Part shown: positions 1,492 through 55,253 of the stretch, piece by piece
Position numbering within the stretch: the first letter of the stretch is position 1
Layout of the letters: every line of letters starts with the position of its first letter
From: an uncultured Flavobacteriaceae bacterium
GTDB lineage: Bacteria; Bacteroidota; Bacteroidia; Flavobacteriales; Weeksellaceae
Assembly (NCBI GenBank): GCA_963521545.1
Contig: CAUQVP010000001.1
Location: forward strand, 1 to 57,370
Direction of reading: 5' to 3'
Length of the DNA stretch: 57,370 nt
Made by a program: the position numbers and the translations under genes
The notes under the pieces: generated by a model
Database searches by the model: none
The model's input: the letters and a program-made list of their open reading frames with translations, nothing else
What the model was told of the DNA's origin: nothing

Positions 1492-1770
1492 ATGAATAAA
1501 ATGGGAAACCAGAATTTTCAAAATCCTTCGCCTATTTATCGAGATAATAAAAAAGTCTTAGCAGGAGTTTTAGCTATCATGTTAGGAAGTTTTGGTATTC
1601 ATAAATTTATTTTAGGATACACCAAAGAGGGAGTTCTTCAAATATTAATGAGTTTTTTCTCATGTGGATTAGCAAGTGTTATTCCTTTTGTAGAAGGGAT
1701 AATCTATCTGACAAAATCTGATGAAGAATTTTACCAAATTTATCAAGTAGGGAGAAGACCTTGGTTTTAA
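1492..1770 (+). CDS. TM2 domain-containing small membrane protein
   Basis: 92 aa with two hydrophobic helices and a TM2-like core (KKVLAGVLAIMLGSFGIHKFILGY). Confidence 0.75.
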   Translation: MNKMGNQNFQNPSPIYRDNKKVLAGVLAIMLGSFGIHKFILGYTKEGVLQILMSFFSCGLASVIPFVEGIIYLTKSDEEFYQIYQVGRRPWF

Positions 1771-1835
1771 GATGATATCCAAAATATATAAAAGATTTGT
1801 TTGTGGATTAGATACATTTAAAAAAATAAGAGATA

Positions 1836-2414
1836 ATGAAAAGAAGATTAATATTATTTCTGATGCTCATGGTTCAGTTTTTCATGGCGCAGAACAAAGT
1901 GGAGGATTATCTTCATTTAGGAGATAAATATAGATTTGATAATAAAGATTATAAATTGGTATGGAGTTCCCATCCAGCGAGTAATTTCTACAAGCAGGAG
2001 TATATTTTGCCAAATGAAAATGTAGAAAAATACACGAGAATGATTATGATTGATTTCTTGGAAGGGGATTTGACTCCAAAGGACGCGATAAGTAATTTTG
2101 TCAATAATTTGGAGAATAGCAAAAAGCAAAATCCTATCATAAATTATCAAATGTATGAAAGAGAGGGTGAATATATGCTTGATTTTATAATAAGTAAAAA
2201 CTCTCAGGATGGAAAGGAAGTTCTTATTTTAGAAAGAAATGTTTATCGATATTTTAGAATAAATACACCGAAGAGAAAGGGTGTTTTGCTTTTTGGCGTT
2301 AGTGACAGAGCATATACTAAAAAAGAGATGGATAATATGTTTTCTGTCTTGAAAAATAAAAAACTTGATTTAGTAAATAAAATAATCCAAATAGAAGTTC
2401 CTAAAATAAAATAA
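1836..2414 (+). CDS. hypothetical secreted protein
   Basis: 192 aa with an N-terminal signal peptide (MKRRLILFLMLMVQFFMAQ). No recognisable domain. Confidence 0.55.
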   Translation: MKRRLILFLMLMVQFFMAQNKVEDYLHLGDKYRFDNKDYKLVWSSHPASNFYKQEYILPNENVEKYTRMIMIDFLEGDLTPKDAISNFVNNLENSKKQNPIINYQMYEREGEYMLDFIISKNSQDGKEVLILERNVYRYFRINTPKRKGVLLFGVSDRAYTKKEMDNMFSVLKNKKLDLVNKIIQIEVPKIK

Positions 2415-2466
2415 TTTTTAAGAAAGGATAGGTAACAAGTCTTTTCTTAACATTACAGCAAAAATT

Positions 2467-3381
2467 ATGAGATTAAATATTAATAACGAAACAGGAAGAT
2501 TAAAATCAGTAGTTCTTGGTCAGCCAGTATCTATGGGAGCAGACCCTACTTTGGAGGAGAGTTATGATGCGAAATCATACCACACCATCCAGCAGGGCGT
2601 TTACCCAAAGGAAGAAGATATTATCAATGAAATGACTGAGTTTGAAAAAGTTCTCAAGAAATACGATGTGGAGGTTATTCGTCCAGATATTATCAAAGAT
2701 TATAATCAAGTCTTCGCGCGAGATGTGGCGTTTGTCATAGAAGACAAGATGATATTGTCCAACCTTATTCCAGACAGAGCCGATGAACAGGAAGCTTACT
2801 CCAAAATATTCGAACAAGTGGAGTGGCGTAAAATCATCAACCTGCCAGACACAGCCCACATAGAAGGGGGAGATGTGATAGTATGGAATGATTTCTTGTT
2901 CATAGGAACTTGTTTTAGTGAGGATTATAGAAATTTCAAAACGGCGAGAACTAACGAATACGCCATAGAAATTCTCAAAGAATATTTTCCTAAAAAAAGG
3001 ATAATAGACCTAGAACTAAAAAAGAATGACACTGTTCCGTATGAAGGCATTTTGCATCTAGATTGTACATTTAATCCCGTAGGAAAGGACAAATGTATCA
3101 TCTACAAAGATGGTTTTGTGGATGAGAGTGATTACAGACTGATTTTGGATATTTTTGGGGAAGAAAATTGTTTCCATGTTACCAAAGAAGAAATGTTTGA
3201 AATGAATCCAAATATTTTTTCGATTTTGCCAGAAGTAGTCGTTTCGGATGCCGCTTTCACAAGGATGAACAGATATTTACAAGATGTTTGGAATATTAAA
3301 GTAGAAGAAATCCCTTATCGCGAGATATCCAAAATGGGAGGGCTTTTAAGATGCTCTACCATGCCGCTGGTAAGGGAATAA
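2467..3381 (+). CDS. amidinotransferase / dimethylarginine dimethylaminohydrolase-family enzyme (guanidino-group modifying superfamily)
   Basis: 304 aa. HLDC motif and a C-terminal catalytic-Cys motif (GGLLRCSTMPL) typical of the DDAH / arginine deiminase fold. Confidence 0.7.
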   Translation: MRLNINNETGRLKSVVLGQPVSMGADPTLEESYDAKSYHTIQQGVYPKEEDIINEMTEFEKVLKKYDVEVIRPDIIKDYNQVFARDVAFVIEDKMILSNLIPDRADEQEAYSKIFEQVEWRKIINLPDTAHIEGGDVIVWNDFLFIGTCFSEDYRNFKTARTNEYAIEILKEYFPKKRIIDLELKKNDTVPYEGILHLDCTFNPVGKDKCIIYKDGFVDESDYRLILDIFGEENCFHVTKEEMFEMNPNIFSILPEVVVSDAAFTRMNRYLQDVWNIKVEEIPYREISKMGGLLRCSTMPLVRE

Positions 3382-3393
3382 AAAATAGAGAAA

Positions 3394-4317
3394 ATGCAGA
3401 CAACCAACACCGTTCTTATGATAGAACCTGTGGCGTTTGGCTATAATGCCCAGACTGCCGAGAACAACTATTTCCAAATAAACTCCGAGAACGAAAATAC
3501 TCAGCTGAAAGCTTTGGCTGAGTTTAATGCTTTTGTGGAAAAACTTCGTTCTCATGGAATCAATGTTATCGTGGTTAAAGACACTCTGGAGCCGCATACG
3601 CCAGATTCTATTTTCCCAAATAACTGGGTGAGTTTCAGCCCAGAGGGAAGGGTAGTTCTCTATCCGATGTTCGCACCGAACCGAAGAGACGAACGCCGAA
3701 TGGACATCATAGAAAAGATGAAAAATGAAGGTTTTGAGGTTAAAGAAATCATAGATTTTACTCAGTCTGAAAAGGAGGACAAGTTTTTGGAAGGAACGGG
3801 AAGCATCATCTTTGACCAAGATAATAAGATAGCATACGGCTCGGTTTCTGTTCGGCTGGATGAGAATTTGTTCCGTGAATTTTGCACGAAAATCGGTTTT
3901 AAACCTATTGTTTTTCATTCGTATCAGACCATAGGCCAAAAACGGATGCCTATCTATCATACCAATGTGATGATGTGTCTGGCGGATAAGTTTGCGGTGA
4001 TTTGTCTCGATTGTATAGATGATGAAACGGAGCGAAAACAGGTGGTAGAAGCCATAGAAAAATCAGGAAAAGAAATTATAGCCATCAGCGAAGAGCAGAT
4101 GCATAATTTTGCGGGAAATATGCTCCAGCTGCATAACGACAAAGGAGATAAGTTCCTGATAATGAGCCAGACGGCATATGGCTCACTCACGCAGGAGCAG
4201 ATAAAAAATATTGAAAAATACAGCCAAATCATTTCTTCTGATTTGAGGACGATAGAAATCAACGGTGGCGGCGGTGCCAGATGTATGCTTGCGGAAGTGT
4301 TTTTACCAAAGAAATAG
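3394..4317 (+). CDS. arginine deiminase-related / citrulline utilization hydrolase CtlX-like protein
   Basis: 307 aa. The N-terminus (VLMIEPVAFGYNAQTAENNYFQ) and the C-terminal GGGGARCMLAEVF catalytic-Cys motif match the CtlX-type subfamily. Confidence 0.7.
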   Translation: MQTTNTVLMIEPVAFGYNAQTAENNYFQINSENENTQLKALAEFNAFVEKLRSHGINVIVVKDTLEPHTPDSIFPNNWVSFSPEGRVVLYPMFAPNRRDERRMDIIEKMKNEGFEVKEIIDFTQSEKEDKFLEGTGSIIFDQDNKIAYGSVSVRLDENLFREFCTKIGFKPIVFHSYQTIGQKRMPIYHTNVMMCLADKFAVICLDCIDDETERKQVVEAIEKSGKEIIAISEEQMHNFAGNMLQLHNDKGDKFLIMSQTAYGSLTQEQIKNIEKYSQIISSDLRTIEINGGGGARCMLAEVFLPKK

Positions 4318-4336
4318 CAGAAAAAAAGTTTTAATC

Positions 4337-5092
4337 ATGACAGAAAACATCAAAAAGTTACAAGAGTTATTGGACTGCGAGGTCATTCCTGTTGCCCAAA
4401 ATACAGACCCAAAACAATTGGTAGAAACTTATCTAAAGCTTTGGCAGGAAGGCAAAGAGCAGAAATTCACGCCCGTGATAGTGACAGCGGATGATATATT
4501 GCTTGAAAAATTTGAACTAGATTTGGAGGATGAGGATTTGGATTTCACAAAGGAAGGAATGAAAACTTATCGTGAAAAAATCCTTGCCGAAGCGCAGAAA
4601 CTAAACGGAGCCGATTTTTATAAAGAAGAGAAAAAAGAGTTTTTGGGAGAGGTTTCTGTTGATGAAATTCAGTGGGAAGTGCCAGAGGGTGAGGAACTGA
4701 TGTTTAGTGCTTATTTGGACATTGATTATGATGATGAGAGCAAAAGCACGATAAAAAAAGATGTAGTCATCGTAAAACTTCCGACAGAAAAATCCTATGA
4801 AGCCTTTGCATGGCTGCCGATGGGCGGGTTTAATGACTGTCCGCTTCCAGCCGAAATGACCGCGATGGCAAAATATTGGTACGAAAAACACGGAGCAGAA
4901 TTGGCGACAATCACCTATGATACAGCTGAATTTTACCTAAATCAGCCAATTTCTGATAAAGAAGCCTTGGTGGAGCTTGCCATAGAGCAGTATCTTTTTG
5001 ATGTGGATATCGTGGAGCAGGGCGTGGGCGATGTGGAATCCCTTGTGGAAACACTTTATCAAAACAAGCAGTGGTATTTTTGGTGGGATTAA
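4337..5092 (+). CDS. DUF4253-like hypothetical protein
   Basis: The track ORF 4265-5092 overlaps the previous gene, so I trimmed it to the ATG at 4337 (MTENIKKLQ). The C-terminal WLPMGGFNDCP...MAKYWYEKHGAEL region resembles DUF4253. Confidence 0.55.
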   Translation: MTENIKKLQELLDCEVIPVAQNTDPKQLVETYLKLWQEGKEQKFTPVIVTADDILLEKFELDLEDEDLDFTKEGMKTYREKILAEAQKLNGADFYKEEKKEFLGEVSVDEIQWEVPEGEELMFSAYLDIDYDDESKSTIKKDVVIVKLPTEKSYEAFAWLPMGGFNDCPLPAEMTAMAKYWYEKHGAELATITYDTAEFYLNQPISDKEALVELAIEQYLFDVDIVEQGVGDVESLVETLYQNKQWYFWWD

Positions 5093-5099
5093 ACTAAAA

Positions 5100-6275
5100 A
5101 TGGGAAATATGAAAAACAATATTATCAAAGGAATAATCTTTTTAATGGGATTGTTTGAAGTTCAGGCTCAGGATGTTACACTTCCATTTGAATTGTATGA
5201 AAATAAATATATTTTGATAAAACTTCCTACAGAGAAGGATAGTTTGACATTTTATTTTGATACAGGAGCTACAACCACATTACTCGACAAGGAGACAGCA
5301 GGTAAGTTTGGATTAAAAGCAAATTATCAACAGAAAGTTTCAGGAGCAGGAGGAGAAAAGATATATGATGTAGTTTTGAATCAAAAAATTTTCCTTACCA
5401 AAGATAAAAGTATAGATGGAGTACATTTCGTACTTGAAGATTTATCAAGGCTAAAAAGTCTTTTGGAGAAGCCTTTTGATGGGATTATAGGTAATGACAT
5501 TATCAAAAATTATGTCACCAAAATAGACTTTAAGAAAAAACAAATAGAATTATACAAGGATTCTATGCCCGAAAAGGAAGGGTTCACAGGGATTTCTTTT
5601 AGTTTTAAAAATAATATACCGATACCTCAGTTTCCGATTACAATAGAAATGGATGGTGGATGGAAGTTTTCAGGAGATGTTTTTTTTGATAGTGGGGCGG
5701 GGCTTTCGTTACTTTTTAATGCACCATTTGTAGAGGAAAAATTCCTTACTTATAAGTTGGGTAAAAGTTTCGTTACTGATTCAAACAACCTTAGTAATAA
5801 GACCAAAACAATAAATACTAAAATCAAAAGGATAAAATTGGGAAGTTTCGCATTTGATAATGTTCCAGTTGCTTTATCCTCTGATAAAGAAGGTGTAAGT
5901 TCTTATAAAGAATATTTGGGGATTTTGGGGAGTGAGATTATCAATCGTTTTGATATTATTCTGGATTACAAGGATATGATATTGTATGTAAAACCTAATC
6001 ATTTATATAACAATAAGTTTGAAATCCCAGTAAGTCCCATTAAATTGAAAAAATCTGAAAATGGAATTTTAATTTCCAGCGTGGTTGAAAACTCAGAAGC
6101 AGAAAAATTGGGACTAAAAGAAGGGCAGAAAATAATATCCATAAACGGCAAGGTTACTAATGATATAGCGGTTTATCGTAAAATGCTGAGTCAAAAGAAC
6201 AAAAATGTTGTCATAAAATATCAGGATGGTGAAGAAGAGAAAAAAATCAAGTTAAAGTTAAAAGAACTTCTATAA
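5100..6275 (+). CDS. secreted retropepsin-like aspartyl protease with C-terminal PDZ domain
   Basis: Trimmed to the ATG at 5100 (MGNMKNNIIKGIIFLMGLFEVQAQ signal peptide). Two aspartic-protease half-site motifs (FDTGATTT and FDSGAGLS). PDZ-like C-terminus (VENSEAEKLGLKEGQKIISINGK). Confidence 0.7.
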   Translation: MGNMKNNIIKGIIFLMGLFEVQAQDVTLPFELYENKYILIKLPTEKDSLTFYFDTGATTTLLDKETAGKFGLKANYQQKVSGAGGEKIYDVVLNQKIFLTKDKSIDGVHFVLEDLSRLKSLLEKPFDGIIGNDIIKNYVTKIDFKKKQIELYKDSMPEKEGFTGISFSFKNNIPIPQFPITIEMDGGWKFSGDVFFDSGAGLSLLFNAPFVEEKFLTYKLGKSFVTDSNNLSNKTKTINTKIKRIKLGSFAFDNVPVALSSDKEGVSSYKEYLGILGSEIINRFDIILDYKDMILYVKPNHLYNNKFEIPVSPIKLKKSENGILISSVVENSEAEKLGLKEGQKIISINGKVTNDIAVYRKMLSQKNKNVVIKYQDGEEEKKIKLKLKELL

Positions 6276-6281
6276 ATACAT

Positions 6282-6318
6282 AAAATCTCCACTGCTAAAA
6301 TAGTGGAGATTTTTATTT
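6282..6318 (+). terminator. rho-independent terminator
   Basis: Stem aaaatctccact / agtggagatttt followed by a T-run, immediately after the 6275 stop. Confidence 0.6.
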
Positions 6319-6466
6319 AAATTTCCGAAATAATTAGAAAAACATAAACGAGAGTTCACTGAAACTTTGCTAAAGAAACGCCGAAGCAAAAACAAAAGCT
6401 CATACAAAAACGGATAAAGTAAATTATTTAAATAAAAAAATAAAGAGAAAGAAGAAAAATATTATA

Positions 6467-6838
6467 ATGAAAATAAAGAACTACATATATTTTATATTTT
6501 TTATTGCTATATCAGTATTTACAGCGAGTGCTTATTTTGATATAAAAAATAAAGAAAATTTTATAAAAAATAATAAACCTGTTAAAGTATATATTCTTAA
6601 TATTCATAGGTTTGCAAAATCATCATCTACTTGCGATATTAAATATGATAATAGAATATACAAAGGAATACCTTACCCAAGTAAGTTAAAAGAGGGCGAG
6701 TATAATGATGATATTTTCTATTATGATGAAGAAGAGGATGCTGTATTTGTAGGTAAAATAGAATATAAGATTATATATATCTTATTGTGTTTATCTTTCT
6801 TCTTTCTGTTTTTATGGCTAAAAAGTATATGGAAGTAA
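6467..6838 (+). CDS. hypothetical membrane protein (N- and C-terminal TM helices)
   Basis: 123 aa in the very AT-rich islet. Hydrophobic N-terminus (IYFIFFIAISVFTASA) and C-terminus (IIYILLCLSFFFLFLWL). Confidence 0.45.
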   Translation: MKIKNYIYFIFFIAISVFTASAYFDIKNKENFIKNNKPVKVYILNIHRFAKSSSTCDIKYDNRIYKGIPYPSKLKEGEYNDDIFYYDEEEDAVFVGKIEYKIIYILLCLSFFFLFLWLKSIWK

Positions 6839-6854
6839 TATAATAATATACCAA

Positions 6855-7190
6855 ATGAAGACAAAACGAATTTTATCAATAACCATTATAGCGGGTTTTA
6901 TAATAACGATGATTGTAATTCAAATTGATAGAAATATTCATGAAAGAAATATGTATGAATCAGAAATAAAAGGTATTCTTTGGAAAATAGTTTTAAAAAA
7001 AGGAGGACATCATTATTATTACGATAAGTATAATAAAAGGGAGTATTTTATAGATGATGATTTTTTTCAAGACAGAAGTGAAAAAAATATAGTAATAGGA
7101 GATTCTATATATAAACCTTCCCATAGTAAAGAGATTTATATTTATAGAAAAGTAAATAATAAGTACAAATTGATTGTTGAAAGTAGATGA
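6855..7190 (+). CDS. hypothetical membrane-anchored protein, paralog 1
   Basis: 111 aa with an N-terminal TM helix. 49 of 111 positions are identical to the 7276-7620 product in my ungapped hand alignment (shared NMYxSEIKG...GGHHY...YIYRK). Confidence 0.55.
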   Translation: MKTKRILSITIIAGFIITMIVIQIDRNIHERNMYESEIKGILWKIVLKKGGHHYYYDKYNKREYFIDDDFFQDRSEKNIVIGDSIYKPSHSKEIYIYRKVNNKYKLIVESR

Positions 7191-7275
7191 TTTTTCAGAT
7201 GAGCTTGGTTTAATATGAGTGAAATCTAACATTTTGATAAATAGGGAATAAAGCAAATTATTCAAATAAAAAATA

Positions 7276-7620
7276 ATGAAAAAGAAGAAAAATATTATAA
7301 TAATGTTTCTGCTAAGCATCATTGTAATAAATGTATCTGATTATATTATAAGAAAAATACAAAAACAAAATATGTATAAATCAGAAATAAAAGGTGTGGT
7401 TTGGGATATTTTTCTAAAAAGAGGAGGACACCATTATCGTTATAATAGAAATGATAAAGGAGATTATTTTGTGGATGAACATTTTTTCAATGATAAACCT
7501 TCAAATATTATAAAAAAGAATGATTCTGTATATAAAGCACCCAACAGCGAAAAACTCTATATATACAGAAAAATAAATAATACTTATGTTCTTGTTGGAC
7601 AAAGTCAAAAATGGTGGTAA
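7276..7620 (+). CDS. hypothetical membrane-anchored protein, paralog 2
   Basis: 114 aa, colinear with the 6855-7190 product. An alternative in-frame ATG lies at 7303. Confidence 0.55.
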   Translation: MKKKKNIIIMFLLSIIVINVSDYIIRKIQKQNMYKSEIKGVVWDIFLKRGGHHYRYNRNDKGDYFVDEHFFNDKPSNIIKKNDSVYKAPNSEKLYIYRKINNTYVLVGQSQKWW

Positions 7621-37626: not shown

Positions 37627-39909
37627 TTATTTAGAGTTTATTTTATCTATTAATCCTCTCAATTTTTTATCATATTCTTGGTTTCCAAAATTAATTATAA
37701 CTAAATGGGATTTACTTCGAGTAATACCTGTATATAAAATTTCATCTATAGATTGAGAATTAGAAGGTTCTAGAATCAAAAATACTAATTCGCTTTCCCA
37801 TCCCTTGAAGCTATGGACAGTAGAAATTTTAATAGTTCCACTATTAAACCAAAAGTTCATTTTTTTATTTTTTCGGATAGTTTCAAAAGTTTGATGTGTA
37901 GAATTTTTTAAATCCTCATATTCTTTTCGATTGTTTTCTATGAAATTTAAGAAGTCTTGAGTTTCAATTTTTGCTTTCTTACATTCGTTTTTTAAAGTAA
38001 TGTCGAACTGATGATACTCATCATTATATTTTTCGTATAGTTCATATATTGTTAGTAGTTTAGCTAAAAGGGCAATGTTGTTTTTTAGGGGGGGATGATG
38101 TTTTGGTAATAATTTTATCCCTTCAGTATAAAGATCTTCTTTTTTTGATTCTAAATTAATTTTATAACCAATTTCTTTGGTTTCAAACATTGTATTGGTT
38201 CTTTCACGAGAATGATACCTGTAATAAGCTTCAAACTCTTTTAAATTTTCAATAGAAAATCCCAATACACAAACATCATTGATAGAGATATCTTTGTATT
38301 TGTTTTCTAAACTTTGATGAATAATATTATACAAAGCAGAAAGGTCAAGAGTATTTTCTAAAAACATATAGTTAATACTTCCATGCTTTTCAAATTCAAA
38401 GGAAAGCTGAGTATCTTCTTTTTTGTCAAAATCATCAATATCATATTTGTCTTTGTAAATTTCTTTTTGAAATAATACAGCTAATTCTTTTACTTTTTGA
38501 TCAGAACGATAACATTGTTTTAATAGGTTGAATGCTCCAAGTATATTGGTTTTAACTTTTTTGTCTTCCGTTTCTCGTGCATAAATATTCTGCTTTTCAT
38601 CTCCAAACAAAATATATTCTCCATTTTCTTTTAGAATATATTTTTTTAGGATTTCAAACCAAATATATTTATAATCCTGTATTTCATCTGTTAAAATAGC
38701 ATCGTATTTTTGTATATTATTTTTATATTCTTCAAACAATTGTATATTGGAATAATATTTTTCATCAAAATATTCAGAAATTATTTTAAACCATTGGATG
38801 CGATATTTAGGATTTTTATTTGCAAAATATTGATTTAATTTTTGGGTAGGTTCCTCATTCTTTTCTAAAGTACTTAAAATTTCTAAGATAATATCTTTTG
38901 GAAGATATTTACTGCATATTTTATGAAGTAAAGGGTCATCAGGGTCGATATAAATATCAATTTCAATATTATTGAGAACAAAATTTATCAATGAATGATA
39001 ATTTAAAATCTCGAAAGACTTCCATTCAAATTCTTCTGGAACTTGATTTAATTTATCGTGGATATAATTCTTTAATGTAATATTAAAAGTGAGTATAAGA
39101 ATTTTAGGATTATCATTTTCTTTTAAAATTCGTTTATAAGCTTCTACAGCCCGAGCTACTAGGGTTGTTGTTTTCCCAGAGCCTACAACCCCTTTTATTT
39201 TTTGAGCTTTATTTTGTGAATAAATTATTCGTTGTTGTTCTTGTGAATAAATGATAGGTTTCCCTTGCTCTTTTAAATGTATAGGTGGCTTGAGAAATCT
39301 AGAAAAACTTTTATATAATTCTTGGGTAAATAAATAAGATGGTTTTTTTCCATTGATATACCTTTTTTTAAGAATTTTATCAAATTTTTCTTTTTCTAAA
39401 TCATCTCTACCAATGAGATCAATATTGTGTTTTAGAAAAGTTAGGTATTTTTCATCTTCTTTAAAAGGTTCTACCAGAAATTTTTGAAGATTATTTTGGT
39501 AGGCGTTATGAAAATAAACGGCACAACATACCATTTTCCAATTTTTATAATCTTTTATTTTTTTTTCTAATAAATTTGGTATGTGTAAATCGTATAAATT
39601 CTCTTTATACTTCAAAACTTGTTGAATAGGAGATTTTGTAACTGCTTTATTGTGCTTTACAATCCATTGTTTTCTGGAATTTAATTTATAAGAAGATAAA
39701 TCCCAATCTTTCACTTCAATAATAAAAACCCCTCCATTTTTCCGCATAATGATAATGTCAGGTCTATCGCCGTTCATGTATGGATTAAAATAGACTTCAT
39801 ATTCATCATTATAATTGTTTTTTAGGAAATTGAGCAGGTGAAGTTCTCCACTAGTTGGAGGAACTTTCATCATTAAAATTGTTTCAAAATCAGGATAAAA
39901 TATAGCCAT
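37627..39909 (-). CDS. NERD (PD-(D/E)xK-like nuclease) domain fused to an SF1 UvrD-like helicase
   Basis: 760 aa. The N-terminus has DRPDIIIMRKNGGVFIIEVKDWDL (D...ExK). It is followed by GVVGSGKTTT (Walker A), ILTDEIQDY (motif II), LFGDEKQNIY (III), CYRS (IV), TVHSFKGWE (V) and YTGITRSKSHL (VI). The gene is much more AT-rich than its flanks. Confidence 0.85.
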   Translation of the reverse strand: MAIFYPDFETILMMKVPPTSGELHLLNFLKNNYNDEYEVYFNPYMNGDRPDIIIMRKNGGVFIIEVKDWDLSSYKLNSRKQWIVKHNKAVTKSPIQQVLKYKENLYDLHIPNLLEKKIKDYKNWKMVCCAVYFHNAYQNNLQKFLVEPFKEDEKYLTFLKHNIDLIGRDDLEKEKFDKILKKRYINGKKPSYLFTQELYKSFSRFLKPPIHLKEQGKPIIYSQEQQRIIYSQNKAQKIKGVVGSGKTTTLVARAVEAYKRILKENDNPKILILTFNITLKNYIHDKLNQVPEEFEWKSFEILNYHSLINFVLNNIEIDIYIDPDDPLLHKICSKYLPKDIILEILSTLEKNEEPTQKLNQYFANKNPKYRIQWFKIISEYFDEKYYSNIQLFEEYKNNIQKYDAILTDEIQDYKYIWFEILKKYILKENGEYILFGDEKQNIYARETEDKKVKTNILGAFNLLKQCYRSDQKVKELAVLFQKEIYKDKYDIDDFDKKEDTQLSFEFEKHGSINYMFLENTLDLSALYNIIHQSLENKYKDISINDVCVLGFSIENLKEFEAYYRYHSRERTNTMFETKEIGYKINLESKKEDLYTEGIKLLPKHHPPLKNNIALLAKLLTIYELYEKYNDEYHQFDITLKNECKKAKIETQDFLNFIENNRKEYEDLKNSTHQTFETIRKNKKMNFWFNSGTIKISTVHSFKGWESELVFLILEPSNSQSIDEILYTGITRSKSHLVIINFGNQEYDKKLRGLIDKINSK

Positions 39910-39999: not shown

Positions 40000-40551
40000 T
40001 TAATCATGATTAAAGCTTTTATCCATCAACACTTTCCCTTGGTAGATTTTTTCATAACGAATGAGCTGTTCTCCTTTGAAATAGCCGATATAATAAGCGC
40101 GCTCTTGGCTGTGTTCTTCGGCTTCTTCTTGGGTGATTTCATCGTATAAATAAGTGGGCTGGTCGGTTGCTTTTTTATGCAAATCAGAGCAGTTGAGAAA
40201 ATAGCGAACAACCATATTTTCTTTGTATAAATAGAGTTTCTGTCCATTCATAGGGATTTCGGCAAAGACCCTTTCTTGCTCAACGGGGGTAATGGGCATT
40301 TTAGGTTCAAAAGAAGGGTCAGCACGAAAGGTATATTGAGGATCAATATGTATTTCTGAACTTTTTACTTTGAATAGGGTTCGCTCCCAACTATTCCCCA
40401 ATAAGAAATACTGAAAACCATCCTTTTCCCCACAATATTCATAGGTAAGTAGGGATTGTATCGCAAAGGCTTCTGTGGCTTTACGCTCTTCTGTCGCTCT
40501 TTTACAAGAGAACAACGCTAACAAAGAGGCTAATAAGGTCATTTTTTTCAT
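40000..40551 (-). CDS. hypothetical lipoprotein (operon gene E)
   Basis: 183 aa with lipobox LFSC. The start overlaps the upstream stop (ATGA). Confidence 0.55.
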   Translation of the reverse strand: MKKMTLLASLLALFSCKRATEERKATEAFAIQSLLTYEYCGEKDGFQYFLLGNSWERTLFKVKSSEIHIDPQYTFRADPSFEPKMPITPVEQERVFAEIPMNGQKLYLYKENMVVRYFLNCSDLHKKATDQPTYLYDEITQEEAEEHSQERAYYIGYFKGEQLIRYEKIYQGKVLMDKSFNHD

Positions 40552-41480
40552 TCTTTTCTACTAAATATATAGGTATCTGCTTCTTCAAAGTTAGGGTACT
40601 GCCCTCCAAAGACTTCTCTTACTACAATTTTACCGAGGTAACGTTCTAAAGGCAAGTAGATATCCTCAGCATCTGTACAAACAAACTCTAAATGAGACAT
40701 TTTCAGCAAAGGAGAGGCATCTTTTATAGGATTAAAACATATCTTTAAGTTCCTAAGGGTCTCCATACCTACCAAATCACTAAGGTCTTCTATCTTGTTT
40801 TGCTCTAAGTTCAATTCCTCTAAAGATAAATGCTTCAAAGGAGAAAGGTCTTTCACCTCGTTGTGATATAAACGCAAGGTAGTGAGTTTTTTGAGGGCTC
40901 TCAGAGGAGATAAATCGCTGATTTGATTCCTCTCTAATTGTAAATATTCAAGATTGGGCAACCACGCCAAAGGGGATATATCGGTGATTTGGTTTCTATC
41001 CAACCAAAGTTCGGTAAGGTTTTGTAATCGTTGTATGCCCTCGAAAGAAATGAGTTTATTGCACGATAGTTTTAATTCTTTTAGCTTGGATAATTCGCAA
41101 AAAGGAGTTATATCGCTCACTCCACTGTCATAAACCTCTACTTTTTTCAGTTTTTTATACTTGGCAAGAGGCGTATAATCTGTTGCCTTGACATTCAAAT
41201 AGAGTTTTTGTAGCTTCTCCAAGGGTGGTAAGGATTCTAAATCGGTAATATTCTCCGATAGCAACTCTAATTCCTTTATATTGGGGAACATTTGTAAGTC
41301 GGCTAAGTCCTCCGAGTGCAAATCATCGTTATGAATGAGTATTTTGGTAATCAAAGGAGCTCCTTCTTCTTTGACCAATACTTTCTTCCCTTCTTTTACA
41401 AGAAGGTCAGCGTGTTTCTTTTTCAGATATTGCTTTACTTTCTGTTCTATGAGCTTGCTCTTAAAGGTAATGTAACTCAT
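40548..41480 (-). CDS. cytoplasmic leucine-rich repeat protein (operon gene D)
   Basis: 310 aa with no signal peptide. About 9-10 consecutive 22-residue internalin-type LRRs (e.g. LQNLTELWLDRNQITDISPLAW, LPNLEYLQLERNQISDLSPLRA). Confidence 0.8.
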   Translation of the reverse strand: MSYITFKSKLIEQKVKQYLKKKHADLLVKEGKKVLVKEEGAPLITKILIHNDDLHSEDLADLQMFPNIKELELLSENITDLESLPPLEKLQKLYLNVKATDYTPLAKYKKLKKVEVYDSGVSDITPFCELSKLKELKLSCNKLISFEGIQRLQNLTELWLDRNQITDISPLAWLPNLEYLQLERNQISDLSPLRALKKLTTLRLYHNEVKDLSPLKHLSLEELNLEQNKIEDLSDLVGMETLRNLKICFNPIKDASPLLKMSHLEFVCTDAEDIYLPLERYLGKIVVREVFGGQYPNFEEADTYIFSRKE

Positions 41481-41926
41481 TTTGTTTTATTTAATACTTC
41501 TTCAAAACTAAGTATTTCGTATTCTTCATTTAGATGATATTTTTCTTTGGTTTGTTTGTACCAAGTGTCGTGTTCTTCCTCAAAATTATTAGTGTCAGAG
41601 GGAGTTCCGTCCTGCCAATACATATTTCCCTTGGCTATCTCCATTGCGTTGTGATAGGTAAGCTCGTGCGGAATGCAGAATAAAAAAATCTCAAGATTTT
41701 TAGGCGAGGTTGCAAACAGGCTACTTTGAGCTAATTTTTCAGTAGCTTCTTCCCAGTTAAGTCTTGCATAGTGCACCATATAGTGCTTGAGCCATTCGCA
41801 ATAGGAATAGTGGTTGTAGATCCAATAACATTGGTTTTCTGTGTCTTCATATACTATCCCGTCACACAAGCCATTTTCGTGAGGTTCAGTTCCTATTTGT
41901 GCTAATCGTTTTTGTAAGGTGTTCAT
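41477..41926 (-). CDS. hypothetical protein (operon gene C)
   Basis: 149 aa, rich in Cys, His, Trp and Tyr, with no recognisable domain. ATGA overlaps at both ends. Confidence 0.5.
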   Translation of the reverse strand: MNTLQKRLAQIGTEPHENGLCDGIVYEDTENQCYWIYNHYSYCEWLKHYMVHYARLNWEEATEKLAQSSLFATSPKNLEIFLFCIPHELTYHNAMEIAKGNMYWQDGTPSDTNNFEEEHDTWYKQTKEKYHLNEEYEILSFEEVLNKTK

Positions 41927-42258
41927 TTTTTCTTAATCAAAATATCTCCTTCGTTTAAAGAAAGTTTTTCACCTTCTATTTCTAATTCTTTCCAATCTTC
42001 TCTTTCATCGGTTTCTACATCATCTACAATCCGAAAATCAGCAAAAGCCATAGAGGGTGCAGGTAGCACAATAACTTTCTCTATATCTTTTGGTTCTAAA
42101 TGATAAGTATCCGAAAGTTTTTTGAGAAATAATAGTTGTTCCAGTTCCTTTTTATAGCTTACAAGTGCGTGTTTCTCCTCATCCGAAAGAGAAACTTCTT
42201 TAAGTTGATGAACAACTTTTTGAAGTTCTTCTTCTATAAGTTGTTTTGCTGTTTTCAT
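41923..42258 (-). CDS. hypothetical acidic protein (operon gene B)
   Basis: Trimmed from the track start 42297 to the ATG at 42256-42258 (MKTAKQLIEEEL), 2 nt after the gene A stop. 111 aa with a helical N-terminus. Confidence 0.5.
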   Translation of the reverse strand: MKTAKQLIEEELQKVVHQLKEVSLSDEEKHALVSYKKELEQLLFLKKLSDTYHLEPKDIEKVIVLPAPSMAFADFRIVDDVETDEREDWKELEIEGEKLSLNEGDILIKKK

Positions 42259-42260
42259 TA

Positions 42261-43175
42261 TTACAATCCGTATTTTTTCCATCCTCCATCGTGCCATTGA
42301 CAGTCATCTATCTTCCACTCGCCATCTTTTCTGATGATGAGAAAACGAAACTGAGTATTATGATCTTCTTGGGTGTAGAGGTATATCTTATTTTTAGTTA
42401 CCAATTCATTATCAATGATTTGATGTTCACCATAGGTACCACCTTTATCTAAAGAATAACTAATTCCTTCAGGGCGATAGCCTGCCCTGCGCTTGTCGGT
42501 ACAATACTTTTGAAAGAGGACTTTACATTTTTCTCTTACCAAAAGATCGCCTTCTTCGGTATCGCCATTCTTGGTAGCAAAAGCTTCCCACTCGGTCATT
42601 GCAGCAAAGAAATCTAAAAGCAGTTGCTTTACGATGGGCAAATCATCGGTAGGGGTTGCCGTTGGTTTCTTCTTTCCTGCCGTGCGTTGAGCTTGTTCAA
42701 AGGCTTTTATCTGCTCGTCGGTAAAAGACTTGCTAAGGTAAAAACTTACCTTGTTGTAGTTTGCCACAGCCATAAGTCCTTCAAAAGTAACCCGTGTTCT
42801 CTTTAGCGAAAGAGACTTTAGGCGTGGTACTTGCAAGACGATTTTTAGCGTCTCATCAGTTACGGGACAACCATCCAGCGAGATATGGTCAATAGGTTTG
42901 TCGGCAAAGTACTTAAAGCCTTCGCCTGTAACTTGTTTGTTGTCCTCTAAGAAAAGGAGTTTTAGTTTGGGCAATGTCGCCAAGTACTGGAGGGCTTCAT
43001 CAGTAATCGCGGTATTGATAAAGCCCATATTGACCAACGACTTTATTTTTACGATCTGTTCAACCATCTCGTCGGTTAGGGTGACATCCTTGTAATGATG
43101 TCCCTTGCAAAAGCGCTTCTCGGTTACTTCTTTGAGCGCGGCTTCTAAAGTGATAGGGTATTTGTATGCGGCCAT
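42261..43175 (-). CDS. LRR-like N-terminal domain fused to an NTF2-fold immunity-protein-like C-terminal domain (operon gene A)
   Basis: 304 aa with RNI/LRR-like repeats (LPKLKLLFLEDNKQVTGEGF, LKSLSLKRTRVTFEGL). The C-terminal ~110 aa (LLDFFAAMTEWE...IYLYTQEDHNTQFRFLIIRKDGEWKIDDCQW) resemble Imm-NTF2/RhsIA-type immunity proteins by recollection. Confidence 0.6.
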   Translation of the reverse strand: MAAYKYPITLEAALKEVTEKRFCKGHHYKDVTLTDEMVEQIVKIKSLVNMGFINTAITDEALQYLATLPKLKLLFLEDNKQVTGEGFKYFADKPIDHISLDGCPVTDETLKIVLQVPRLKSLSLKRTRVTFEGLMAVANYNKVSFYLSKSFTDEQIKAFEQAQRTAGKKKPTATPTDDLPIVKQLLLDFFAAMTEWEAFATKNGDTEEGDLLVREKCKVLFQKYCTDKRRAGYRPEGISYSLDKGGTYGEHQIIDNELVTKNKIYLYTQEDHNTQFRFLIIRKDGEWKIDDCQWHDGGWKKYGL

Positions 43176-43190
43176 TTTTAATAGATTAAG

Positions 43191-43222
43191 AATAAAAGCG
43201 GAAAATTATTCCGCTTTTTTTT
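43191..43222 (-). terminator. rho-independent terminator of terC (overlaps its stop codon)
   Basis: Minus-strand stem aaaagcggaa / ttccgctttt followed by ttttattctt. It ends about 15 nt before the gene A start. Confidence 0.55.
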
Positions 43223-43988: not shown

Positions 43989-44090
43989 AGATAAAAGTTA
44001 AAATATGCGCAAATATAGAAAAATAAATTAGTTAAAAATACATAATATGAACAGGGTTTTGTTTTAAATCATTATCACTATCTTTGCCCT

Positions 44091-50831: not shown

Positions 50832-53800
50832 ATGAGAAAACTTTTATTGTTGTTGAATTTCTTCGTCATTTTCAACAGTTATGGACAGAGTCTTGTGTCC
50901 AAATTTGATGTAGCATCTAATGGTGCTAATTCGGTTGCTTTTGTAGATAAGAGTATAGGGACTCCTATATCTTATCAGTGGGAATTTCAGGGAGGGGTAC
51001 CAGCTGTATCCACAGAGAAAAACCCTAAGGTATCTTATTCCTCACCAGGGAAATATAGTGTAAAATTAAAAGTTACAGATACTAAAGGCATTACCTCTAC
51101 ATCTGTGAGAACATTAGAAGTGTCCTATACAGTAGCAAAGGAAATAGATCTGAGTACAGGGACTAAAGAAGATGGAACTCTGATGTCTGAGAATGGAGAA
51201 AAAGATGCAGACTGGACACATTTGGATGAAAAAATGACTATTAGAACAATTCCATATACTAGAAAACCATATTTGGATAAAAAAAATGATCCTGTATTTG
51301 GAAGTTGGGAGTCAGCAGAATTAAATAATAAAACACCAGTGACAAGATGGATTACAACAAATAGTGGAGGTAGACACACCAAATGTTTTTATATTAGTAA
51401 AACTTTTAAAGTTCCAACTGAAGGTGTTTTAAATCTAAAGGCTCTTGCATTTACTCGAAATTGGGTGTATTTAGTTAAGAAAAACCAAGATGGAACAGAA
51501 GATAGTAAACAAATAACACGAACAAAATTTATTCAGATAGGAACTTCAGGATTAACTAAAGGATGGTTGAATCCTGAAAATCCAGAGGTGGTCAATTATA
51601 AATTGGAACAAGGGGAATATTATATTAAAGTTGAGGTTTATACTAGCTCTGGTTTGGATAAACAATCAATAGATGTAAATGCAAAAGTGGGATTAGGGGT
51701 AGGAATAAAGGCTGTTTTATCTCCCCCTGCTGATTTTAAAGCAAATGCAACCACAGTTAATTTTGGAACGAATGTGCAGTTTTCTAATATTTCAGCAGGA
51801 ACTCCAGTTAGTCAAAGTTGGACATTTACAGATGCAGGAAGTCATGTAACAGATAAACAAAAAAATCCACTTATTAAATTCAAAAGTGTGGGATATCACA
51901 ATGTGGAATTGTTGGTAGATTATGGCAATCAAATAGTATCTAGTTTAAGTATAGACAACTACATGAAAGTGGCAGGACTGGACTACACTAAAGCTCCTAA
52001 TAGTTACATATTTGACCATAAAAGTTCAAATAGTGGATTGTTTATCCCAGTGAAAAAGGCTTATGAAATGTGGAAAAATGGACTTCATATTGAAGGAGGA
52101 GCGGTGCCTAATGGGCAGGCAGTAGCAGAGGTGTATTGGGAAGATGTACATGGATTGATAAGAACAAAGCCTAATTATCAACTGGAAATTATAGGTTCAG
52201 GAGAGTCTGCAAAGATAAAAGTGCCTGTTAATAAAGCTAAAGAAGGAAATGCATTAGTAGTATATAAAGTTAATGGTAAAATATACTGGTCATGGCATGT
52301 GTGGGTTACAGATGATCCTAGCAAAGGAACCAACTATATGGCTTATGATGAAACTAAAAGACTTAGAAATAATGGTGTAGAGGAACTTATACCAAAAGCT
52401 GAATGGGGATGGATGGATCGTAATTTGGGAGCTGTTTCTAGCAGCCTTACAGAAGAAGGATGGAATAGAAATAATGGACTATTATACCAATGGGGAAGAA
52501 AAGATCCTATTCCTCCGCTAGCAACTAGAGGATGGGATTTTTATGAGGTTTCTGGTACAGTGGGAAGAATAGGACTTGCGAATTCGCAAAATAATAATGT
52601 GGTTAAAAAAATAGATGAAACTAGGATTTTCATTCCTTTATCTAAAGCGAAATTAAAGGATAATATTCAGCGTTCTATTCATAATCCAATGAGTCTTATT
52701 TATGTGAATGATGATAACTCAAATGAACAAGCATATTACATTTCTCGTAATAAAGAAGGTAATATAGTAGGTAAGTGGCCTGTCAATTGGTTCGGAAATC
52801 CTTCTTTTAATGATGGAAAATCAATAGCAGAAGTAAATCTTTGGTCAGATAATTCCCAAGGTAAATTCTTTAATCCACAAACACGGCTTGAAAAACTAGT
52901 GAAACCTTATCAAGATAAGTCTTCGTATGACCCATGTCCTAATGGTTGGAGAGTCCCTTCAGTATTGGTGGCGAATACAACACTAGGAGGCAAGAATAGA
53001 GATATTCCTATGATACTTAGTCCTTTTGGACCAAAAACATTAGAGCATAATAATAACCAATTATATACGATTACACCAACCAACGATGGAATACCTAATT
53101 TTCTAAGGGGAATAAAGATGTATCCTGAGATGGGTGCTGATTTATCTTCTGTTAATGGACAAAATATGGGGGTCTTTCCAGGAACCGGATTGTTATCTAG
53201 AACTACACAAGGTGGAAGATATACTGATATGCATGAAACATATCTTTGGACTGCTACAATGGGAAGATGGTGGAAAGATGATATAAAAACAGTGAATCCA
53301 ATGGCTTTGAGAATAGTACCAGATCTTAATCAAAAAAAATATATTCCAGATCCAAATATGCCATCATTAAAGGGGTTTTATGTATATAATCCTCTATTTT
53401 GGGAGAGAACATCTTCTGATGCTATGGGGGTGCGCTGTATAAAGGATCCTCTATATGTGGTAAATGAATATGACTTCCCTACAGAGTTTTTTAGAGATGA
53501 AATAGCATATCCTACATTCACTGATGGACTTGAAAATCCTAATACCTATCAAATAGTTAAAAAAACTACAGAGTCTATTATCAAAATACCAATTAACAAA
53601 GCATTTTCTGTGCATAGTGAGCATTTGGATAATAAACAAATATTAAAAAATACCAACTATAATAATTTAAAAGCTAATGTGCATTGGACTACTAACAAAG
53701 ATCTTATTAGGCATGTTTCTATTTCAAAAACCAATCCAGCTAGTTTGGCAGAGATAAATAATACATTTATTAATGTAAAAATAACACCTAATCAAAGTGG

Positions 53801-55253
53801 AAATGCGGTAGTTACTCTACATAATGGAAGTATTGCTAATCCTGTGTATTGGTCTTGGCATATTTGGGTAACAGATTCTGAAGTAAAAACAGTAAGATAT
53901 GTTACTGCTGAGCCTAATACAGCAGCATATAACTATATAAACTATGTAAATGATGACCATGTAATAGACTCTGAATTTATGGATAGAAATTTAGGAGCAT
54001 TGGATGTCTTTCCATCTGTAGTAAATGCAAATTCTCCATCCATTCAAGAACTAAGTAAAATAAAAGTATCTGGAGGTATGCAGTACCAATGGGGAAGAAA
54101 AGACCCTATACCTTCTTTTATCAATCCTGATGGTTCTTCTTATTCTATTTATTTAGGGAATACTAATGCTGCTGGGCAGGTATCTTATACAGAATTGAAT
54201 AGTGGTAATTATGAAAGTAGATTTGTGGTACCATATAACAATTATGCTAATAATGTGGTATCAACAGATAAAATATCTGATAAGGTAAGTAAGGTTTTGA
54301 GCTATTCTGTTAAAAATCCACTGGTGTTTATGATTCCAAGTAAACAGGCTCCTCTTCATAAAAATATGCAAGCTTATACTAATGGAACAGACTGGCTTAT
54401 AGATGAGGCTAATATTGCTTCTGATAGATGGGGTCGAGCAGATAGAAAGTCTCCATTTGATCCTTGTCCAGAAGGATGGAGAGTTCCTGATGCTTCACAT
54501 GTAGATATAACTCCTCCTAGAGATTTTGGAAGATCACCTTGGGGAAGAAAGGAGAGAGATCGAACAAAAAATGAATTTCTTAACATATGGTATAAAATAG
54601 AAGGTTTCTACAAAGGGAGAACAATAAAGTCACCTCAAAATCAATCTCTTGGATATGTTTTTGAAGATGCAGGATATCATATAGGGAATTATCCATTTAC
54701 AGGTGCTAGAGGCTATAGAAATATGACTGATGGTCATGCTATCACATCCAAAGTTAATGAAAGACATATGGGAGTTTGGACTAGTGCTATGGGCTCAGCT
54801 TTGTTAGGAAGACCTCTTGCTCTTGTGATAGATAAAGGTAATGGAGCAATGAGTATGTTTGAGAACTACTTAGATCCATATTTCGCTATGAATTGTAGAT
54901 GTATAAAAATCAAAACAACAGCGGATGGTAAGCAGGAAGGAGCTATTCCAAGATTACCTATACCTAAATACACTGTAGCACAACCAGCCAAACCATTAGC
55001 TGCAAATACAGTTCAGAATATGCTTAAAGAGGAGAAAACCTTAAAGGCTTATCCGAATCCTGTTACTGATATTCTAATGATAGATGGAGAACCAGGGAAA
55101 GAATATTTTTATCAGTTGTATGACAAAAATGGAAAAATGCTGAAAGAGGGTAAATTTGTAAATAATCAAATAAATATAAGCAATTTGCTACCTGATATTT
55201 ATCTGATGCGAATAAATAACTCTAAAGAAGCTATAAAAATTATAAAAAAATAA
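50832..55253 (+). CDS. giant T9SS-sorted surface/secreted protein: 2 PKD domains, a duplicated ~520-aa module and a T9SS C-terminal domain
   Basis: 1473 aa with a signal peptide. PKD-like segments lie at about 50904-51125 and 51721-51975. The motif series YWSWH(V/I)WVTD, MDRNLGA, YQWGRKDPIP, DPCPxGWRVP and RCIK occurs twice. The C-terminal LKAYPNPVTD...IYLMRINN is a type-A T9SS sorting domain. Confidence 0.85.
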   Translation: MRKLLLLLNFFVIFNSYGQSLVSKFDVASNGANSVAFVDKSIGTPISYQWEFQGGVPAVSTEKNPKVSYSSPGKYSVKLKVTDTKGITSTSVRTLEVSYTVAKEIDLSTGTKEDGTLMSENGEKDADWTHLDEKMTIRTIPYTRKPYLDKKNDPVFGSWESAELNNKTPVTRWITTNSGGRHTKCFYISKTFKVPTEGVLNLKALAFTRNWVYLVKKNQDGTEDSKQITRTKFIQIGTSGLTKGWLNPENPEVVNYKLEQGEYYIKVEVYTSSGLDKQSIDVNAKVGLGVGIKAVLSPPADFKANATTVNFGTNVQFSNISAGTPVSQSWTFTDAGSHVTDKQKNPLIKFKSVGYHNVELLVDYGNQIVSSLSIDNYMKVAGLDYTKAPNSYIFDHKSSNSGLFIPVKKAYEMWKNGLHIEGGAVPNGQAVAEVYWEDVHGLIRTKPNYQLEIIGSGESAKIKVPVNKAKEGNALVVYKVNGKIYWSWHVWVTDDPSKGTNYMAYDETKRLRNNGVEELIPKAEWGWMDRNLGAVSSSLTEEGWNRNNGLLYQWGRKDPIPPLATRGWDFYEVSGTVGRIGLANSQNNNVVKKIDETRIFIPLSKAKLKDNIQRSIHNPMSLIYVNDDNSNEQAYYISRNKEGNIVGKWPVNWFGNPSFNDGKSIAEVNLWSDNSQGKFFNPQTRLEKLVKPYQDKSSYDPCPNGWRVPSVLVANTTLGGKNRDIPMILSPFGPKTLEHNNNQLYTITPTNDGIPNFLRGIKMYPEMGADLSSVNGQNMGVFPGTGLLSRTTQGGRYTDMHETYLWTATMGRWWKDDIKTVNPMALRIVPDLNQKKYIPDPNMPSLKGFYVYNPLFWERTSSDAMGVRCIKDPLYVVNEYDFPTEFFRDEIAYPTFTDGLENPNTYQIVKKTTESIIKIPINKAFSVHSEHLDNKQILKNTNYNNLKANVHWTTNKDLIRHVSISKTNPASLAEINNTFINVKITPNQSGNAVVTLHNGSIANPVYWSWHIWVTDSEVKTVRYVTAEPNTAAYNYINYVNDDHVIDSEFMDRNLGALDVFPSVVNANSPSIQELSKIKVSGGMQYQWGRKDPIPSFINPDGSSYSIYLGNTNAAGQVSYTELNSGNYESRFVVPYNNYANNVVSTDKISDKVSKVLSYSVKNPLVFMIPSKQAPLHKNMQAYTNGTDWLIDEANIASDRWGRADRKSPFDPCPEGWRVPDASHVDITPPRDFGRSPWGRKERDRTKNEFLNIWYKIEGFYKGRTIKSPQNQSLGYVFEDAGYHIGNYPFTGARGYRNMTDGHAITSKVNERHMGVWTSAMGSALLGRPLALVIDKGNGAMSMFENYLDPYFAMNCRCIKIKTTADGKQEGAIPRLPIPKYTVAQPAKPLAANTVQNMLKEEKTLKAYPNPVTDILMIDGEPGKEYFYQLYDKNGKMLKEGKFVNNQINISNLLPDIYLMRINNSKEAIKIIKK

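Follow-up and report, generated by a model that had tools for sequence, protein, structure and literature searches.

We describe a group of five adjacent genes, here called A to E, on the minus strand of a 57,370-nt stretch of DNA from an uncultured Flavobacteriaceae bacterium (contig CAUQVP010000001.1, positions 1 to 57,370, of assembly GCA_963521545.1; referred to below as the window). Comparison with related sequences suggests that A-E probably constitute an orphan heterogeneous polyimmunity operon of oral Capnocytophaga. A preliminary description of the window, made from its sequence alone, had such a locus as its first hypothesis. The hypothesis is supported by the presence of the immunity family PF15655 in A, by relatives of B and C that follow Rhs toxins, and by the variable gene content of related arrays. 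Exact or near-exact copies of the locus occur in human oral metagenomes and in Capnocytophaga genomes, and the host is an oral Capnocytophaga of the C. granulosa/gingivalis group.

Polyimmunity loci consist of genes in the same orientation with small intergenic distances, presumed to be transcribed as a single polycistronic message (Zhang et al. 2012, PMC3482391). They have no toxin genes inside, their content varies by strain, and there is sometimes an adjacent XerC/D-type recombinase. Leucine-rich repeats (LRR) and Imm-NTF2 are both listed among the immunity domains of heterogeneous polyimmunity loci in the same study.

Layout and transcription of the operon

The features of the operon are as follows.

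42261-43175, minus strand: gene A, 304 aa; N-terminal RNI/FBXL-type LRR and C-terminal Imm-NTF2; predicted immunity protein
41923-42258, minus strand: gene B, 111 aa, pI 4.9; belongs to a ~110-aa family that Pfam does not model and that occupies the immunity position of an Rhs toxin cassette
41477-41926, minus strand: gene C, 149 aa, 19.5% Cys+His+Trp+Tyr; family motif HE..YH.AM...G..YW
40548-41480, minus strand: gene D, 310 aa; cytoplasmic internalin-type LRR protein, candidate Imm-LRR
40000-40551, minus strand: gene E, 183 aa; lipoprotein with a signal peptide and LFSC lipobox (Cys16), candidate periplasmic immunity protein
43194-43218, minus strand: terC stop codon and terminator-like hairpin with a 10-bp stem (terminator scan), 18 nt upstream of the ATG of A

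The five open reading frames (ORFs) form a compact operon which runs from 43175 to 40000 in the order A-B-C-D-E. B/C, C/D and D/E are joined by ATGA start/stop overlaps (41923-41926, 41477-41480 and 40548-40551 respectively), while the A/B junction is a 2-nt gap (42259-42260), all as first described. The three 4-nt overlaps and the gap are kept in orthologous loci, and this is the spacing and orientation reported for polyimmunity loci. The preliminary description considered such tight coupling unusual for independent immunity genes; it is in fact typical of polyimmunity loci (Zhang et al. 2012). Compared with six to nine orthologous loci, the pairwise dN/dS for each of A-E is between 0.07 and 0.33 (0.11-0.14 for A), indicating that all five are under purifying selection. 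Given the recurrent junctions in orthologues and these dN/dS values, A-E are real, constrained genes rather than chance ORFs. The GC content of the region is 0.35-0.43 and resembles that of the flanks.

The operon begins just after the terC terminator, as the preliminary description had also noted: only 18 nt separate the end of the hairpin from the ATG of A, and no Bacteroidetes -7 motif (TAnnTTTG) was found within 430 nt upstream of A. The motif is present upstream of terC, at 44017, and a -7-like copy lies upstream of the neighbouring NERD gene. Read-through from terC is therefore plausible, and transcription of A-E probably relies either on this or on a promoter that was not recognised. 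The loop of the hairpin contains the terC stop codon, and the hairpin resembles a terminator on both strands, with the better T-tract on the plus strand.

Gene A is an LRR/Imm-NTF2 fusion

Two regions can be distinguished in A.

42663-43088, minus strand: LRR region, approximately residues 30-171; matches to FBXL2 (E 2.5e-5), FBXL17 and GALA protein
42267-42632, minus strand: Imm-NTF2 domain, residues 182-303; PF15655, E 1.4e-41, 142.1 bits

The match to PF15655 covers profile positions 2-129 of 129, and its score is to be compared with a cutoff of 25 bits, so that A is a member of the family. The structural matches of the N-terminal region come from a PDB sequence search, span residues ~30-140 and are of F-box/LRR and GALA type; in Pfam the same region gives weak matches to LRR_4, LRR_6 and LRR_14. 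The reading of A as LRR/RNI-like repeats followed by an NTF2-type immunity domain, made originally from the sequence alone, is thus confirmed by profile search. The 90% identity cluster that contains A also holds RefSeq proteins, from C. granulosa and C. gingivalis, that already bear the name 'NTF2 fold immunity protein'. A has neither a signal peptide nor a C-terminal domain of the type IX secretion system (T9SS).

Imm-NTF2 has been linked to Tox-NucA nucleases and is sometimes fused to ankyrin repeats (Zhang et al. 2012, PMC3482391). No such toxin accompanies A, since the larger ORFs of the window that were scanned or annotated on both sides belong to housekeeping families only. A is an orphan copy of Imm-NTF2 within the 57-kb window.

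Gene B relatives follow an Rhs C-terminal toxin

An upstream ATG at 42297 is taken as the start of B by some gene callers, which gives a protein of 119-124 aa. The 111-aa start is preferred, because distant family members align from MKTAKQL. Neither B nor C has a match in Pfam, NCBIfam or PADLOC, and their PDB sequence matches are at chance level only. When B, C and E were used in word-indexed searches, the matches were all to close relatives (52-100% identity), and the few organism names given were all Capnocytophaga; relatives outside the genus were found only by exhaustive HMMER search (B) and by tblastn (C). The preliminary statement that B and C match nothing known is therefore correct for Pfam, NCBIfam, PADLOC and PDB, but it does not hold for relatives, which exist outside the genus.

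The HMMER search with a B profile gave 84 representative relatives of ~105-115 aa (E ≤ 1e-3), none of which has a Pfam family. The C-terminal motif of the family is LP..SEYRI.D.ETD.R..W.EL..RL..GDIII. A narrower alignment of the family was used to scan metagenomes for relatives. In a tblastn search against plasmids there was no match for B or for a distant B relative.

Several of the metagenome loci have a toxin directly ahead of the B-family gene.

L043, 1334-1720; L045, 145-522; remnants in L030 and L031, 7772-7987: B-associated toxin cassette, ~128 aa

In L043, a 128-aa ORF starting MGWVDPFGL is preceded in frame by the end of an Rhs core (...DPIGLLGGETPYAYVHNP) and followed, after a 2-nt gap, by a B-family gene. 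In L045, a toxin 74% identical to this cassette is again followed by a B-family gene. Remnants of the toxin lie ahead of B-like genes in L030-32 (39% identity, with the common motif HKT.PHINxL), and degenerate fragments do so in L046-49 and L053-54. The full His-rich motif of the toxin is GH..LPNGHPHKT.PHINxL. Given the contexts in L043, L045 and L030-32, the B family is assigned to the immunity position behind one particular Rhs C-terminal toxin, which is unclassified. The toxin itself has no match in Pfam, NCBIfam or PDB, and tblastn did not find it in the 57-kb window. Wherever the cassette was sighted, the next gene was a B-family gene.

The wider arrays around B-family genes include a Cytotoxic-domain cassette with Imm45 behind it, as well as Ntox15, RHS repeats, DUF6386 and a SUKH protein; one array, with both a B paralog and a C paralog, also holds Tox-ART-HYD1, Imm9, Imm45, LHH and SUKH. 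One gene in the L043-type arrays has a relative named from 'uncultured Haemophilus sp.', the genes flanking L030-32 are named from metagenome-assembled genomes (MAGs) of Bacteroidota, and L036-39 are from Sphingobacterium. The name 'cell-division protein [Capnocytophaga gingivalis]', given by RefSeq/NCBI to the B ortholog P0212, was considered as a guide to function and no support for it was found.

Gene C relatives follow an Rhs-DUF3990 protein

The tblastn search against plasmids produced a single weak match for C, on the Cupriavidus campinensis megaplasmid NZ_CP043441.1.

L058 (NZ_CP043441.1), 1596-7375: Rhs-DUF3990 protein and two tandem C-family genes

The locus encodes, at 1596-6371, a full-length 1591-aa Rhs/YD-repeat protein whose C-terminus, after the DPLGL sequence, is DUF3990 (E 1.4e-15). 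Directly after it come two tandem homologs of C (134 and 127 aa), which align over the whole core of C. The gene table of PLSDB lists no features in this interval. When the Capnocytophaga C alignment was compared by hhalign with the Cupriavidus pair plus a Bacteroidota paralog, the probability was 98.9% with an E value of 2.8e-17 over 119 columns. In the toxin-immunity array of L030-32, a C paralog lies two genes downstream of the B-like gene. These three observations together place C in an immunity-slot family. The Cupriavidus locus also suggests that DUF3990 is a toxin domain in use, with an immunity family of its own. B and C appear to define antidote families that are not listed by Pfam.

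Genes D and E

D matches LRR_4 of Pfam in nine stretches (E 1.1e-35), and no signal peptide was detected at its N-terminus (MSYITFKSKLIEQK), in agreement with the original description of internalin-type LRRs without export. Against the internalin models of NCBIfam it has E values of 1e-32 to 1e-36 and scores of 112-125 bits, where the cutoffs are 1050-1600. An assignment of D as an internalin-like surface protein was rejected: the scores are far below the cutoffs for class 1 internalins and there is no signal peptide. E is a lipoprotein, as first described, with a signal peptide and an LFSC lipobox. It has no match in Pfam, NCBIfam, PADLOC or (by tblastn) plasmids, its PDB matches are at chance level, and no exhaustive profile search was made with it. 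Its relatives fall into 147 clusters; the 120 matches listed are all at least 75% identical, and the organism names given are only Capnocytophaga, so that E appears, among the relatives found, to be restricted to this genus. Local HMM and phmmer searches of all the fetched arrays with D, E and both halves of A returned orthologs only. A role for D in immunity is suggested by its LRR superfamily and its position in the array, and one for E by its association with the array.

The evidence for D and E needs to be weighed against a different explanation, in which the locus is mixed: A, B and C would be orphan immunity genes, and D-E a separate module, for example for envelope-linked signalling or scaffolding, carried on the same transcript. 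D and E are reported together, with the ATGA overlap, in every locus that has D, and are lost together in L056 and L019-25; no toxin-adjacent relative of either was found; and D is the most conserved gene of the array (91-96% identity). Against this, heterogeneous polyimmunity loci are known to include LRR proteins as one of their immunity classes. E has mosaic allelic blocks with dS up to 1.7, as is expected under conflict-type selection. The pairing is also not obligatory, since some strains have lost D and keep the C-terminal part of E without it.

P0003/P0013, L055, 114-770: C::E' fusion (C plus the C-terminal half of E), D deleted

We consider a mixed locus unlikely, and retain the single polyimmunity operon as the better description of A-E.

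Variation of the array across Capnocytophaga

At least eight array architectures were found across Capnocytophaga, and gene number and type differ between related strains, as in polyimmunity loci. The following are examples.

Window type: terC-A-B-C-D-E, with or without NERD-UvrD, then msrA
L008: terC-B-C-D
L013: terC-96aa-B-methyltransferase-C-X3(396 aa)-D-E-msrA
C. sputigena and C. periodontitidis: GT4-A-(DUF1697)-B-methyltransferase-C-D-E-rpsF
Oral taxon 338: DUF4240-TPR-DUF4304-DUF6348-...-A-B-methyltransferase-C, without D or E
C. gingivalis type: OmdA-227aa-DUF4304-DUF6794-Macro-WG repeats-DKNYY-A-DUF1697-B-methyltransferase-C::X3-D-E
L026, 7496-9070, and L024, 1127-2701: C::X3 fusion, in C. 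gingivalis-type loci

In two species the A-E-type block is the tail of a longer array on the same strand, and the chromosomal position of the array differs between species. A is missing from L008, L012, L013 and L017. In L012, L013 and L027, C and X3 are still two genes, joined by an ATGA overlap. Inserted genes keep the tight spacing; this is seen for DUF1697, a class I SAM methyltransferase, Macro, OmdA/YdeI, WG-repeat and DKNYY genes (L018, 8362-8925 and 9276-10004; L026, 571-4905).

Divergence within the array is mosaic. It was measured by comparing L026 with L013, L012, L018 and L056, setting the array genes against their flanks. For the pair L026/L013, the dS values are 0.02 (B), 0.10 (methyltransferase), 1.32 (C), 0.32 (D) and 1.34 (E). 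For the pair L026/L012, dS is 0.13-0.24 in B and the methyltransferase, but a flanking MFP gene has reached saturation. In close relatives, dS for A-E (0.2-0.6) is greater than for terC, PTPS and msrA (0.09-0.26). Such a pattern points to the exchange of single genes between lineages and not to a machine whose parts co-evolve, and implies cassette-wise recombination between Capnocytophaga lineages.

Some lineages have truncated or fused copies (P0020, P0025, P0026, P0003 and P0013), which might suggest that these are decaying accessory genes without a current function. The low dN/dS of the intact copies does not fit with decay, nor does the wide distribution of intact clusters over many Capnocytophaga lineages. 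Adhesins occur among the LRR proteins of oral Bacteroidota, and the genes might alternatively encode secreted LRR factors for interaction with the host, except that neither A nor D has a signal peptide or T9SS C-terminal domain. We regard decay or host interaction as very improbable.

Six of the loci (L019-L023 and L025) have a Capnocytophaga-type A-B-C, with C at 65-83% identity, in MAGs labelled 'uncultured Campylobacter sp.'. An error of binning or labelling is the probable reason. Here the array stops after C, and three TM2-domain genes lie ~2 kb downstream.

Neighbouring genes and the possibility of a single machine

Downstream of E is one gene of quite different composition.

37627-39909 (boundaries ~37600 and ~40010): NERD-UvrD single-gene island between convergent E and msrA; PADLOC C3a187, E 7e-55

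It has 26% GC compared with 36-43% around it, and is absent from the close relatives L011, L013 and L014. With its insertion the last codons of E were replaced, so that the protein ends in ...KSFNHD* instead of ...KTISD*. On these features NERD-UvrD is taken to be an independent later acquisition and not a partner in the operon. A functional link between it and A-E was rejected on the grounds of the low-GC insertion, the absence from close relatives and its own -7-like motif.

This bears on the second hypothesis of the preliminary description, that A-E form a multi-subunit sensor or defence machine on repeat scaffolds, possibly together with the nuclease-helicase NERD-UvrD. The conserved overlaps, the collinear order in every genome and the purifying selection are what such a machine would show; in C. 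gingivalis-type loci C is fused to the 396-aa X3; and NERD-UvrD does match a PADLOC candidate. However, NERD-UvrD is a later insertion, as described above, and PADLOC has no match for any of A-E at E ≤ 1. A or D-E are missing from several loci, unrelated genes are inserted between the members, and adjacent genes are very unequal in divergence. Subsets of A-E therefore travel apart. Relatives of B and C occur singly beside toxins in Proteobacteria and in other Bacteroidota, without the other four genes. Homologs that occur individually downstream of toxins are what the preliminary description itself had named as evidence against a machine, and this reading, which we hold to be highly unlikely, is largely refuted by the comparative data. 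A variant of it takes the collinear A-E core as an LRR-scaffold complex extending from cytoplasm to periplasm, anchored in the membrane by E, and collectively sensing or sequestering effectors. Such a complex would account for the constant gene order, the conserved start/stop overlaps and the fusion of C to X3, and we give it just as little credence.

For the preferred reading of A-E as a polyimmunity operon, the absence of toxins is to be expected. No toxin family was found in A-E using Pfam, NCBIfam and PADLOC, and there is no Rhs core or toxin remnant at the locus. Elsewhere in the window, 50832-55253 encodes a protein of 1473 aa that carries a PKD domain at its N-terminus and a T9SS sorting domain at its C-terminus; it is mostly without family match, and no toxin domain was detected in it.

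Proposed function and its significance

We propose that the five unrelated genes would be carried on one message, probably by read-through from terC, with coupled translation. Each product alone would bind and block a different toxin domain from competitors' polymorphic toxin systems such as Rhs. A would do so with an LRR scaffold and an NTF2-fold immunity domain of the family linked to Tox-NucA nucleases. B would neutralise the unclassified His-rich Rhs C-terminal toxin, and C a DUF3990-type Rhs C-terminal toxin. D would be an LRR binder in the cytoplasm, and E a lipoprotein acting in the periplasm. Given that there is no cognate toxin in the window, protection would be against the toxins of other strains and not the cell's own.

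Several points weigh against this proposal. The order A-B-C-D-E is always collinear, with no free shuffling, and related arrays hold genes outside the classical immunity families (DUF1697, SAM methyltransferase, Macro and OmdA). No recombinase, mobile-element marker or tRNA gene was found nearby, the neighbours being terC, PTPS, msrA, a GT4 glycosyltransferase, GH3 and similar genes. The absence of a cognate toxin applies to the 57-kb window and not to the rest of the genome. Imm-NTF2 is itself a computationally defined family. The mean pLDDT of AlphaFold2 models is 49 for C and 47 for E, from shallow genus-only alignments, which is too poor for fold comparison. No toxin-linked relatives were found for D and E. 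The main residual uncertainty is a different role for the D-E pair.

A locus of this kind is already known, and the new content is modest, namely two immunity-slot families without a Pfam model and their toxin partners. The operon is an example of an orphan polyimmunity array in human oral Flavobacteriia. It is surrounded by housekeeping genes and lacks the recombinase characteristic of the rAID clusters of gut Bacteroidales. It gives two testable toxin-immunity pairings absent from Pfam: the B family with the His-rich Rhs toxin, and the C family with DUF3990-type Rhs toxins. If true, both would extend the catalogue for annotating interbacterial defence genes in microbiomes, which is an incremental gain and not a new principle.

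Comparison with known systems

The AID-1, AID-2 and rAID-1 clusters of Bacteroidales are like A-E in being consolidated orphan immunity genes of host-associated Bacteroidota, and in that A-E show signs of exchange between species, namely the mosaic dS and the differing chromosomal positions. The analogy with acquired interbacterial defence (AID) clusters that was drawn in the preliminary description holds at this functional level. It does not extend to structure. rAID-1 is defined by a 5' XerD recombinase, intergenic repeats and skewed GC (Ross et al., bioRxiv 10.1101/471110), and none of these is present here. Membership of rAID-1 was rejected for A-E, which have no recombinase, a GC of 0.35-0.43 like that of the flanks, and no intergenic DNA. 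Unlike AID clusters in general, they also have no integrative and conjugative element (ICE) or transposon context and no integron-like repeats, the genes being overlapped. No homology of A-E to Bacteroidales type VI secretion system (T6SS) immunity genes is shown.

The relatives of B and C are themselves members of orphan Rhs C-terminal toxin/immunity arrays, where they come directly after a toxin C-terminus delimited by PxxxxDPxGL. The locus in the window differs from these in that neither a toxin cassette nor an Rhs core is present, whether whole or as a remnant.

LRR inhibitors such as the eukaryotic ribonuclease inhibitor, and the Imm-LRR class, offer a further parallel. The N-terminus of A consists of RNI/FBXL-type LRRs, and D is a predicted cytoplasmic LRR horseshoe with no export signal. 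Unlike the LRR inhibitors, however, no toxin partner is known for A or D, and the repeats of D follow the 22-residue internalin pattern, which is mostly that of secreted proteins.

The closest comparison is with heterogeneous polyimmunity loci. There are differences: A alone has a match to a catalogued Imm family, B and C being without a Pfam model and E without relatives found outside the genus; the recombinase found next to some polyimmunity loci, which is an optional feature, is absent; the array is collinear across the genus; and related arrays carry enzyme genes. Relatives beside toxins, as expected for members of such loci, are found by family for A and by context for B and C; for D the only pointer is its LRR superfamily, and none were found for E. 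The likenesses are that A-E are co-oriented, tightly spaced, structurally unrelated predicted immunity genes, free of toxins and variable between strains, and that they include an Imm-NTF2 protein and an LRR protein. The fusion of a repeat scaffold to Imm-NTF2 in A is analogous to the ankyrin-Imm-NTF2 fusions reported previously.

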